A DNA stretch of 64,000 nucleotides from Escherichia coli (lineage in GTDB: Bacteria > Pseudomonadota > Gammaproteobacteria > Enterobacterales > Enterobacteriaceae): the NCBI RefSeq assembly GCF_003334385.1, contig NZ_QOWN01000003.1. One strand, given 5' to 3'. How positions within the stretch are numbered: the first letter of the stretch is position 1; each line of letters begins with the position of its first letter. A program made the translations under genes and the position numbers. The notes under the pieces are model-generated. The model was not told the origin of the DNA, did not search any database, and worked only from the letters and a program-made list of their open reading frames with translations. Shown piece after piece: positions 13,437 to 54,899 of this stretch.

Positions 13437-13542
13437 AAAAAAAAGCCCATCGTGGGAGATGGGCAAAGACTACACACAGCAATTCGTTGTTTCACTCAGG
13501 GGATTTCCATGCTTATAAATCAATATGTTGATTTATAACCGT
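13437..13542 (-). ncRNA. rprA: RprA small regulatory RNA (RpoS translational activator)
   Basis: Reverse complement reads ACGGTTATAAATCAACATATTGATTTATAAGCATGGAAATCCCC...CCCATCTCCCACGATGGGC followed by a T-run (terminator hairpin); matches RprA as recalled, between ydiL and ydiK. Confidence 0.85.
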
Positions 13543-47856: not shown

Positions 47857-48005
47857 TGCCGGATGCGGTGTTAACGACTCATCCGCGTTGACATGAAAAG
47901 ACGCGTTAGGCGTCGTATCATGCAGCGCTTGTCGGATGCGGCGAGTGCCTTATCCGACCTACATCGATGATCCGCGTAGGCCTGATAAGCGTAGCGCTTC
48001 AGGCA
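47857..48005. repeat. cluster of REP (repetitive extragenic palindrome) elements
   Basis: Several copies of REP-like motifs (GCCGGATGCGG..., GTCGGATGCGGCG...CTTATCCGACCTAC, GTAGGCCTGATAAGCGTAGCGC) between ydhP and sodB. Confidence 0.75.
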
Positions 48006-50283: not shown

Positions 50284-53200
50284 CTATCCCCAATCCAGCC
50301 CTTGTGGCGAACTTGAAAATCCCGCCTCACGCAGCAGCGTAAACATCGGCGTTTGCCGGACCGGTAGATCATTCACTTCTGTTAGCGTAAAGCGCAGCCG
50401 TGGTTCGCGACGCAGTGCGGTAGTCAGCGCGTGGAAAACCTCTGGGGCGAGTAATTCCTCTTTTTCCTGCCAGACCAGCATTTTTTTGCCACCTTGCGCC
50501 AGATAGAGTAACAATTTGCCGCCAGAAACGACCACCAGCGCACCCGCCCGACGCGTTGGAACCAGCGTTGCCGGATGTGCAGGCCAGGGCAGAAGATTTC
50601 CCCACACATTAGCCGGATCGTTGGCAGAGAGCGCCACTGGTGTATAGTGGCGCGTTTGCGTGGCTTGTGTCGCCAGATCGCGCAATCGGTCAATAGTCAG
50701 ACGTTCAGCGAATTGCGCGCCACCCAGACCTTCTACAAAACGACCTCGCATAATTCGCCCGGAGTCTTCCATACTTCGACAAAGCGTTTGCATCGATGGA
50801 AACCCGCCAGGGATATTTTCGGCTATCACCGCCTGACGACTGATGATGCCGTAGCGGTCGAGCATATTTTCCGCCAGCGCCAGCATCCTTTCGGTATCGT
50901 TTAGTGGCTCCACCTGCAATAACGACCAGCGTCCAGCCAGATTTGGTGTGTTGTAAGATACCCGCGGCGAGACGGGTTGCGCATAGACAGGACGTCCACG
51001 ACGAGCCCGGTGACTGCGGCGAGTTGAGGTGCGTGCGTTGGAACTGCTGCGGGTGAGGGCGCGTAACGGTGCCCAAATGTCGCTGGTGATGACGCCTTGC
51101 CAGACCAGCGCCCATAACGCCTCTTGCAGGGCAGAGAGATCAACCGATTCGCCGATTTTGTCGCGTATCCGTTGGCTGATTTGTTGTGCAAACCAGGCTC
51201 CTCCGTCAGCCAGAACAGCGACTATCGCTTGTTGCAGCGCCGAACGATTCGCCTGATCCGCTTCGGCGGGAGTGAACGATTCTGCAGCATATTCCTGTAG
51301 ATGCAGTGCCACCAGGCCGTCATCTTCACCCAGTTTTTTTGCCCCGACCAGATAACCGCACCGGTTGCCAGTAATTCATCGAGCATTTCTGACGAATAGT
51401 CGCGTACGCGGGCAGGCAGGATCTGGCTTTCCCAGAGTGAGGCGGGTAAACCGACTCCGGCAAGCTGTTCGATCACCCGCATCACGCCATCTACGCCCTC
51501 ATAAACGCCTGGCGATGTTGAGGCAAAGAGCGCCGGGCTACCATCGGTGGCGGGTAATACGCCCTGACGTTCCAGCAGCAATCGCGCATAGGTCGTGGCT
51601 GCAACGGGACGCGTCGCTTCTCTGGCGGCTTGCAGCGAGCGCAAACGCAGACGACGAAATACTTCATCGCTCACCCAGATGTCTTGTTGCAGATTCATCA
51701 CCAGACCCTGTTCACGCAGTTGCTGAAGCTGCTCTTCGACAATGGCAATACCGAGACTAAACTCATGAGCCAGTTGTTCAGCCGTGACCAGAGCATGAGC
51801 CCGGAGATAGCGCAGAAAGAGGTCGCGAAGCGGGTAACTGACTCTATGTAAATAAATCTCTGGCAATGACTCTGGTAGTCGTACGCCGAGGGCATCACGC
51901 AGCCTGGCGGCATCATCCATACAGGCAAGACGCTCCTGTCCGCTAATCATCGCTGGGAAGATTCGTTTTACTGCAAGAAGATTTTCCAGATACGACGCAA
52001 CCTCTTCACTGCTGCCTGTATGCCGTTGCGCCAGGTCTTCAACGGTCATTGGCCCCAGTTCGCGCAGCAGGTCGAACAATCCTTCTTCACCTTTCGCTCT
52101 TCTGCCAGGAGCCAGTCGTTGCAACTCTTCTTCCACCTGGCGAATGACCTGCGGGTCGAGTAATTCCCCCGGATCGACCTGTCCGAGTAGATTGCGCAGT
52201 AACTCGCTGTCCAGCGACAGTACGGATGCCCGGCGCTCTGCCAGCGGGGCGTCGCTCTGGTACATAAATTCCGCGACATAGCCGAACAATAAACTTGTGG
52301 CGAAAGGCGAGGGCGTAGTGGTCGTTACATCGGATATTTGAATTTCGCCACCGTTCAGGCGACGCATCAAACGTTCCAGTGCGGGAAGATCATAAACATC
52401 TTGCAGACATTCGCGTAGGGTTTCGAGAATGACCGGAAAATCCGGATATCCCTGAGCGATTTCCAGCAACTGACTGGCGCGCAGCCGTTGTTGCCAAAGC
52501 GGGGTGCGATGGCCCGGAGTGCGCCCCGGCATTAATAATGCCCGCGCGGCGCATTCGCGAAAACGGGCGGCGAAAAGTGCCGAGCTGCCTACCGCCTCGC
52601 GGACAATTTGCAGCAACTTTTCTGGTTCAAACAAAAAAATCGCGGCATCGGGCAATTTACCATCGGTGTCAGGAATACGTGCAACAATGCCGTCATCACT
52701 GGCGACCACCGACGCGTCAGCGCCCCATAGCGCATGTATTCGCCCGGCAATCGCCACCGCCCAGGGTTCATGCACCCGTCTTCCATAGGGAGAGTGCAAA
52801 ATAATACGCCAGTCACCAATTTCATCACGGCACCGTTCGAGGACCAGATGGCGACTCCCCGGAACGATGCCCGTCGCGTTGCGCTGCTCCTCAATCAACC
52901 CCTGAATATTGGCGATCGTATTTTCTTCTGCCAGCCACGGGGGAATAGTCCCGGAAAAGAACGCGCCATCCGCCAGCAAATGAAGAAAATCGCCGATCAT
53001 CTCGCCTAATTCAGCCGGACGTCCGTTACCTTCACCACGCCAGAAGGGGAGCCGGGCAGAACGACCCGGAGCAGGAGTCACAATCACCTGATCGCGGGTG
53101 ATTTGCTGGATCCGCCATGAGGTAGCGCCGAGAGTGATAATGTCGTTCACCCGCGACTCATATACCATCTCCTCATCCAGTTCACCCACCCGCCGCGAAC

Positions 53201-54899
53201 CGGCCTTTTCTTCACCTTCGGGTAATAACACGCTATACATGCCACGATCCGGAATGGTGCCGCCGCTGGTAACCGCCAACAATTGAGCGCCAGGTCGGGC
53301 GGTCAATATCCCGGTCTCCCTGTTCCAGACCAGTTTGGGGCGAAAAGCAGAAAAATCGCCAGAGGGATAGCGCCCGGAAAGCATATCCAGCGTGGCGTCA
53401 AAAACACGTCTTGGCAGATCTTTCCACGGTGCGGCACGGCGTACGCGGGAGTACCATTCGTCTACCTGTAATGCATCCATCGCCGCGGCGGCAACGGTTT
53501 GCTGCGCAAGGACGTCGAGAGGATTATGCGGTGGTGTCAGGTTTTCCAGCCTGCCTGCGAACATACACTCTACAATGACTGCGGAATCGACTAAATCACG
53601 CCGGGTACGGGGGAAAAACAGCCCTTTAGATACACCGCCAACCTGATGTCCGGCGCGACCAATGCGTTGTAACCCACTGGCAACAGAAAGCGGCGTTGCC
53701 ACCTGAATCACCAGATCCACCGCGCCCATATCAATCCCCAGTTCAAGACTGGAGGTTGCGACCACGCAGCGTAATTCACCCGATTTCAGCGCCTGTTCGG
53801 TGATTGCTCGTTGTTCTTTAGAGACGGAGCCGTGGTGTGAGCGGGCAATAAAAACGTCGCTACTTTGTACACGGTTAGAGGTTGCGCCGGAGGTCGACTC
53901 GAAATGGGCCGCATCAACGGCGATAGACGGGGAACGCTGTAAGCGTGCGGCGTAAAGCTCATTTAATCGTGCCGTCAGTTTTTCCGCCAGCCCCCGCGAA
54001 TTAGTAAAGACAATGGTCGAGCGATGGCGCAACACTTCATCAAGGATACCCGTTTCAATATATGGCCAGATGGAGCCTTCCCGGCCGGCATGGCTGTCTT
54101 CGCCGGTGCCGCTGGCGACCGATGAGACATCATCCATATTGGCGACCGGTACGACAATTCGTATCTGCGGATGGCGCATTGCGGGCGGGTTGACTACCGT
54201 AACCGGGCGATCGCCACCAAGAAATGCTGCCACATCGCTGGCTGAGCGCACAGTGGCAGAAAGGCCAATTCGCTGTGCTGAGGTGTGGAGCAGCGCATCG
54301 AGCCGCTCCAGACTTAACGCCAGATGCGCACCACGTTTACTGCCCGCTACCGCGTGGACTTCATCAATAATTACCGTTTCGACGCCGCGTAGCGTTTCGC
54401 GCGCGCGGGAGGTCAGCATCAGATAGAGTGATTCGGGTGTGGTGATCAGAATATCCGGCGGATTACGGGTGAGTTTGCTGCGTTCCTGTGCAGGCGTATC
54501 GCCAGTACGGATCCCTACGCGAAGATTGACTTCCGTTTCGCCGCGCCGCCGCCGTTCATCGGCAATACCCTTCAACGGGATCTGCAAGTTGCGCTGAACG
54601 TCGGTGCCCAGGGCTTTTATCGGTGAAATATAGAGGATGCGTGAGGTTTTACGCTTATGCGCCTCGCGGGTATTTTCGCCGCCTTCGCGGAAGAGCCGAT
54701 CGAGGGCGTAGAGAAATGCTGCCAGCGTTTTCCCGGAGCCGGTCGGTGCAATCACCAGCGCATGTTCGCTTCGCGCCGCCACATGCCAGGTTTGCGGCTG
54801 GACAGCGGTCGGCTGTTTAAAGGCGCGAAGAAACCAGTCGCGGGTCGCCGGTGAAAACACGTCCGGCAGGAGCGATGAAGGGTCTGGATTATCTGCCAT
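50284..54899 (-). pseudogene. lhr: Lhr-type large SF2 helicase, reading frame interrupted by an apparent -1 frameshift
   Basis: Two overlapping minus-strand ORFs (51222..54899, 1225 aa with Walker A APTGSGKT and DEVH box; 50284..51312, 342 aa) together cover one helicase; span is 4616 nt (not a multiple of 3); candidate site is the T7 run at 51334-51340. Confidence 0.65.

Follow-up and report, generated by a model that had tools for sequence, protein, structure and literature searches.

An Escherichia coli lhr gene apparently split by a one-nucleotide deletion in an A8 run

The split lhr locus

The window analysed here comprises 64,000 nt of the Escherichia coli assembly GCF_003334385.1 (contig NZ_QOWN01000003.1), and all coordinates are those of this whole stretch. 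On its minus strand, between rnt and grxD, lie two open reading frames (ORFs) at 51222..54899 and 50284..51312, which overlap by 91 nt in different frames and jointly span 50284-54899. The span is 4616 nt long, one nucleotide less than the 4617 nt of an intact lhr; this layout, first described in the initial annotation, is borne out by the ORF listing. Synteny and the repair of the frame by one added A mark the whole span as a putative lhr pseudogene. In K-12, Lhr joins a superfamily 2 (SF2) helicase for DNA repair, of 3'-5' polarity, to a uracil-DNA glycosylase region at its C-terminus (PMC10953399). The gene order rnt-lhr-grxD is the same in K-12, in strain PEC399 and in ten other genomes.

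The upstream ORF starts with an ATG and encodes 1225 aa, made up of 1188 native Lhr residues and a 37-aa out-of-frame tail, NWVKMTAWWHCIYRNMLQNRSLPPKRIRRIVRRCNKR, which ends at a TAG stop (51222-51224). Its translation carries the Walker A motif APTGSGKT (residues 51-58, 54726..54749) and the DEVH box (residues 179-182, 54354..54365), both of which had been assigned to this ORF. The downstream ORF encodes 342 aa from a GTG at 51312, in a frame open from 51375; it corresponds to Lhr residues 1197-1538 and includes WH4_Lhr and Asp1536. The NCBIfam equivalog NF007284 (1538 positions, cut-off 1496) matches the upstream ORF with 2667 bits over profile positions 1-1189 and the downstream ORF with 706 bits over profile positions 1198-1538, leaving a gap of 8 residues exactly at a run of A. 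Because one equivalog model covers both ORFs in succession, their arrangement is not due to chance. With the cut-off exceeded by the upstream ORF, the SF2 motifs present and the position between rnt and grxD kept, the locus falls within the Lhr family. An uninterrupted ORF of ~1538 codons joining the helicase core to the glycosylase region is absent from the window, the frame being broken after codon 1188.

At the break, the coding strand reads TGG TCG GGG CAA AAA AAC TGG, with seven A (51340..51334); this A7 homopolymer of the minus strand (51334..51340, T7 on the plus strand) is the site of a 1-nt deletion relative to A8. The lhr gene of K-12 MG1655 is a single ORF of 4617 nt with A8 and reads ...WSGQKKLGEDDGLVALHLQEY, and PEC399, the closest intact RefSeq relative, likewise has A8 and a single lhr ORF. 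Adding one A to the window sequence yields a 1538-aa ORF that reads ...WSGQKK-LGEDDG... across the junction and equals K-12 Lhr save for D76N. The initial annotation had proposed that the two ORFs jointly encode a single Lhr-type helicase of 1538 aa (4617 nt) and that one extra A would rejoin the frames, and on both counts it proved right. Its placement of the T7 run within the overlap holds in part: the run lies inside the stop-to-stop overlap 51222-51375 but outside the 91-nt overlap of the ORFs, 22 nt 5' (in the coding sense) of the GTG at 51312. Codon 76 (54672..54674, minus strand) is AAT (Asn) where GAT (Asp) is found elsewhere; the change is private to the lhr of this strain and occurs also in a Logan contig, L016. 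In other genomes, the same A7 allele is labelled a "frameshifted" pseudogene by NCBI PGAP. Because NF007284 covers both ORFs, the K-12 gene has A8 and a single added A restores K-12 Lhr with D76N, the two ORFs are, to judge from their sequence, one lhr gene, the frame of which is broken by the loss of 1 nt from an A8 run. The locus is accordingly best classed as a pseudogene or a shortened lhr allele and not as a functional full-length member of the family.

The helicase core of Lhr comprises residues 1-897 and its C-terminal region residues 898-1538 (Buckley et al. 2023, PMC10953399). By Pfam matches, WH2_Lhr covers residues of about 912-1016, WH3_Lhr about 1130-1206 and WH4_Lhr about 1334-1416; as the frame is lost after residue 1188, the break lies inside WH3, the third winged-helix domain. 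The predicted 1225-aa product keeps the SF2 core (Walker A, DEVH, the RecA domains and DEAD_assoc) together with the beginning of the C-terminal region, and it lacks WH4 and the C-terminal end including Asp1536. This aspartate is needed for Lhr's activity as a uracil-DNA glycosylase, the helicase activity is independent of the glycosylase, and the isolated C-terminal region binds DNA poorly (PMC10953399). The A7 product should be devoid of glycosylase activity and may or may not stay a stable helicase; at best, the strain would have a helicase-only Lhr, which may be unstable. No Shine-Dalgarno sequence is evident before the GTG at 51312 (gaagatgacggcctgGTG), and the start of the downstream ORF differs between gene callers, giving 342 or 211 aa. 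For these reasons the 342-codon ORF is probably not expressed as a useful protein.

Such an allele would have arisen when the A8 tract lost one A:T pair to replication slippage; the tract encodes Gln1187-Lys1188-Lys1189 (CAA AAA AAA). Translation from the normal start would then pass through the native residues and 37 codons out of frame before reaching the TAG, and the mutation would be tolerated as lhr is non-essential. We examined the presence of the gene in 5426 complete E. coli genomes with a 6.4-kb query over rnt-lhr-grxD and a threshold of at least 80% coverage, which 4382 of them reached; the remaining 1044 keep 32% of the query. In these 1044 genomes lhr is nearly all deleted, with a ~230-nt remnant between rnt and grxD; in APEC O1, for example, the two pieces left, one 5' and one 3', measure 111 and 126 nt (L015, 3402-3630). 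In natural E. coli, lhr is thus commonly lost. A strain deleted for lhr in the laboratory is viable, though sensitised to oxidative stress (PMC10953399), and this together with the natural deletions makes the gene dispensable.

The A7 allele: mutation or assembly error

Over 64,001 aligned columns, the window differs from PEC399 by 19 substitutions and exactly one gap, which is the A7 site; the other homopolymers of the window (three runs of 8 nt and about 25 of 7 nt) are unchanged. The best 24-kb matches in the 5,426 complete RefSeq genomes still stand ~6 single-nucleotide polymorphisms (SNPs) and the gap away from the window. The exact 1225-aa product with Asn76 (P0078) was found only in Logan read-set assemblies, on a contig common to four samples. 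The ERR1948963 contig (L016) agrees with window positions 41222-64000 at 100.000% over 22,779 nt, with 0 mismatches and 0 gaps. A7 lies in this identical stretch, as do six substitutions by which the window departs from PEC399; four of the six (those covered by the K-12 sequence compared) also set it apart from K-12. Dam/Dcm motif context, a signature of long-read error, was checked at the SNPs of the window and none was seen. The same tract length is thus obtained from a different assembly pipeline, which favours a real deletion, and the error-free 37.5-kb k-mer contig would imply accurate reads. The initial annotation had offered three origins for the break, namely a sequencing or assembly indel, a real inactivating mutation or a slippage-prone site. 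It is the real mutation that is now favoured, an independent read-set assembly having reproduced the allele exactly, and we hold it very probable that the strain carries the A7 deletion.

The frequency of the allele was examined in complete E. coli genomes with a 71-nt query centred on the run, a span of 72 nt denoting A8. Exact A7 occurs in 19 of 4351 genomes (0.44%), and all rows listed beyond these 19 span 72 nt; about 99.5% of the lhr-carrying E. coli genomes therefore have, like K-12, A8 and one 4617-nt ORF. Ten of the 19 A7 genomes were compared: with differences of 2 to 228 substitutions per 11.9 kb, they fall into at least six unrelated haplotypes, and the private substitutions of the window were in none of the ten. 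A single inherited A7 clade, considered as an explanation for the 19, was rejected on these two grounds. Since its carriers lie on unrelated haplotypes, A7 arose, or was miscalled, many times. The Asp76 version of the shortened protein (P0077) is indexed in 374 blocks of the protein collection, mostly on contigs of 5-50 kb; such lengths are typical of short-read assemblies, and real A7 alleles therefore probably recur too. The A7 allele of lhr is thus already present in public records.

Some of these records carry further 1-nt deletions. In ETEC1734, ribE, which adjoins the locus, is annotated as frameshifted (L009, 20060-20071), ribE being an essential gene; in ETEC1706 (L013), lhr itself has lost a base from another homopolymer (C6 to C5); and GCA_047157925.1 (L019) has, beside the lhr A7 and within 9 kb, G6 to G5 in nemA and T5 to T4 in mepH. 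The extra deletions in such "complete" assemblies point to consensus errors there. GCA_047157925.1 belongs to a series of 3.95-Mb assemblies (with GCA_047155725.1, L017, and 21 similar places) that have lhr A7 in a locus otherwise identical to that of K-12 MG1655. They look like genome-reduced K-12 derivatives, in which A7 is either fixed in a laboratory lineage or a systematic error of the project.

These records bear on the foremost alternative, namely that the strain is truly A8 with an intact lhr and that the region's longest coding homopolymer is one A short in the consensus. Runs of A8 are typical miscall sites. Five of the 19 complete A7 genomes come from one Belgian ETEC project, on four different haplotypes, and it is in this project that the deletions in ribE and in the C6 run lie near A7; of the 19 A7 calls at a control run in rprA, described below, 3 are from this project too. 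The two deletions beside A7 in the K-12-derived L019 and the spread of A7 alleles across unrelated haplotypes speak for the same alternative. Several points weigh against a real deletion. Several database copies of the allele are evidently artefacts, and the lhr A8 site is one that error-prone sequencing platforms miscall, since the ETEC and K-12-derived A7 copies have further homopolymer deletions. In addition, the evidence from ERR1948963 is an assembled contig, and the window assembly may derive from the same reads; the Logan contig would then be independent as an assembly but not as data. The fates of both fragments, too, are predictions from sequence. On the other hand, the 64 kb of the window hold no other indel, all of its other 7- and 8-nt runs being intact, and the Logan pipeline returned the identical sequence including A7, on the contig shared by four samples, whose error-free length again suggests accurate reads. 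An assembly indel, although it explains some of the database copies, is in our view improbable for the window.

Whether the tract is unusual was judged against two other A8 runs of the window, both intergenic and neither inside an essential gene, so that the pure error rate is not isolated by the comparison. At the rprA terminator (13437-13444), the -1 allele is found in 19 of 5424 genomes (0.35%), scattered over unrelated strains; three of these carriers are from the Belgian ETEC project that contributes five of the lhr A7 calls, and JL05 is another. JL05 has an lhr span of 401 nt, against 402 nt in A8 genomes, yet stands outside the 19 exact A7 matches. At the lpp terminator (26209-26216, 16 nt past the ldtE stop), the -1 allele is found in 62 of 5220 genomes (1.2%); many of its carriers are apparently clonal (ST361-named strains and the Res13 pig series), and there A7 looks like an inherited polymorphism. 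No excess instability of the lhr tract was seen relative to these two runs (0.44% vs 0.35% and 1.2%). The lhr tract is not special, because its -1 frequency is in the same range; it behaves like any A8 run. Neither the idea of a phase-variable contingency locus, length variation not being clearly above that of comparable A8 tracts, nor the suggestion of a slippage-prone site with a function, A7 being no commoner at lhr than at the controls, found support. Real -1 mutations and long-read consensus errors alike recur in the lhr A8 tract.

The strain has other differences as well. About a dozen substitutions in the 64 kb are absent from both K-12 and PEC399 (9730, 22377, 23683, 26155, 26159, 28574, 44891, 49127, 49622 and 54674, also 60349 and 60390), and most of the genic ones are nonsynonymous, among them D76N in Lhr and a pair spaced by 4 nt at the 3' end of ldtE. 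Such a nonsynonymous excess would be unusual for natural divergence and suggests recent mutation accumulation, be it through a mutator, mutagenesis or relaxed selection. In the ydhP-sodB intergenic region, at about 47869-47927, a segment of about 60-70 nt is found in the window and in PEC399 and is missing in K-12 MG1655; the break in the alignment at this point shows a short overlap and suggests a small indel bounded by repeats.

Recoding, leak and separate genes

The second alternative accepts the deletion and holds that useful full-length Lhr is still made, either by a -1 ribosomal slip or by RNA polymerase adding an A, the tract serving as a regulated or reversible switch. The heptamer A_AAA_AAC (51333..51339, minus strand) conforms to X_XXY_YYZ, and its register is that of the upstream frame (CA|A AAA AAC); after a -1 slip on it, the product would run ...QK(N/K)LGEDDG... 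and go on as native sequence. In two E. coli test cases, single-base deletions were suppressed through spontaneous -1 frameshifting, at an aggregate 1-10% (PMC10861913). The other marks of a programmed -1 site of the dnaX or IS3 type, a downstream structure and a conserved two-ORF layout, are missing. The 74 nt downstream hold no stimulatory fold, their minimum free energy (MFE) being -17.5 kcal/mol where shuffled versions average -19.9 (z = +0.76), and 156 of 200 shuffles fold at least as well as the native sequence. The two-ORF form is a rare state, seen in 19 of 4351 genomes, the closest relatives having one ORF, and its A7 run is no commoner than that at the rprA control.

Transcriptional slippage fares no better. 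Slippage of E. coli RNA polymerase is undetectable on fewer than 8 A (PMC6260861), and in many bacteria runs come under selection against slippage from about 9 nt (PMC1088944). The run of the window, with 7 A where at least 8 and typically 9 would be called for, is below this threshold, and it is not kept in homologues. More distant Lhr homologues do not have the Lys-Lys pair but read QRK, HGA, HKA or SKT, and because these take the place of QKK, no A run is possible there; this was judged from few distant homologues, as a search with 228 aa returned mostly Lhr fragments of E. coli and Shigella. No evidence of programmed recoding at the lhr A7 was found in the fold of the 74 nt, the population frequency or the homologue comparison, and we regard functional recoding as very unlikely. 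A small spontaneous -1 leak at A_AAA_AAC is nevertheless possible, because such frameshifting is documented in tested E. coli genes, and the heptamer is a candidate for a leak only. Perhaps A7 is a separation-of-function or leaky variant, which would combine a stable helicase-only Lhr with about a percent of full-length protein, the A8/A7 tract acting as a reversible and recurrent dimmer of uracil removal in E. coli populations; we give this bolder reading just as slight a chance.

That this lineage has two functional cistrons, one for the 1225-aa helicase and one for the 342-aa C-terminal protein, is hardly credible: some gene callers and submitters do annotate both pieces as proteins (P0063 and P0077, with GenBank accessions), but both match one equivalog model end to end with the 8-residue gap at the A run, the closest relatives carry a single ORF, the upstream product finishes in 37 out-of-frame residues, the downstream ORF has neither a Shine-Dalgarno sequence nor an agreed start (342 or 211 aa), and PGAP calls the locus a frameshifted pseudogene.

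We therefore return to a genuine loss-of-function allele of lhr, presumably produced by slippage from A8 to A7, as the explanation in which we have high confidence. The lhr A7 is most likely a real and ordinary inactivating mutation in a dispensable gene, of an allele that is already public. It matters little beyond annotation, where the lhr of this strain should be labelled a frameshifted pseudogene and not two genes. Phenotype work on the strain should allow for lost Lhr glycosylase function. A split lhr may also serve as a handy quality flag for E. coli assemblies, since its A8 tract is hit repeatedly by true -1 mutations as well as by consensus errors of long reads. The absence of lhr from about a fifth of complete E. 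coli genomes limits the importance of its repair role in the wild.

Comparison with known systems

Programmed -1 sites of the dnaX type consist of A_AAA_AAG, an upstream Shine-Dalgarno-like element and a downstream hairpin. The window shares with them the in-register X_XXY_YYZ heptamer at the break; unlike them, it has no stimulatory hairpin, its split layout is not conserved, and the Lys-Lys pair is not conserved outside Escherichia. With K-12 Lhr (b1653, WP_001310858.1), the repaired window protein shares the locus, Walker A, DEVH, DEAD_assoc and WH2-WH4, whereas in the window as it stands the frame is broken after residue 1188 and the last 350 residues, including Asp1536, are detached from the helicase.

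A further likeness is to the same A7 allele in records such as 730V1, EC96, NCTC9040 and AP027685, which have the deletion and the 37-aa tail in common with the window and are called "frameshifted" by PGAP; BEB81696.1, SRY61690.1 and VED46510.1 are the 1225-aa product of this allele. These other A7 records differ from the window in having Asp76 and other haplotypes, and thus arose independently or are artefacts, the Asn76 version being found only in the four Logan samples. Finally, the natural lhr deletion of about 19% of complete genomes, APEC O1 among them, resembles the window in that loss of Lhr function is tolerated; it removes nearly the whole gene, whereas the window has lost a single base and its helicase core can still be translated.

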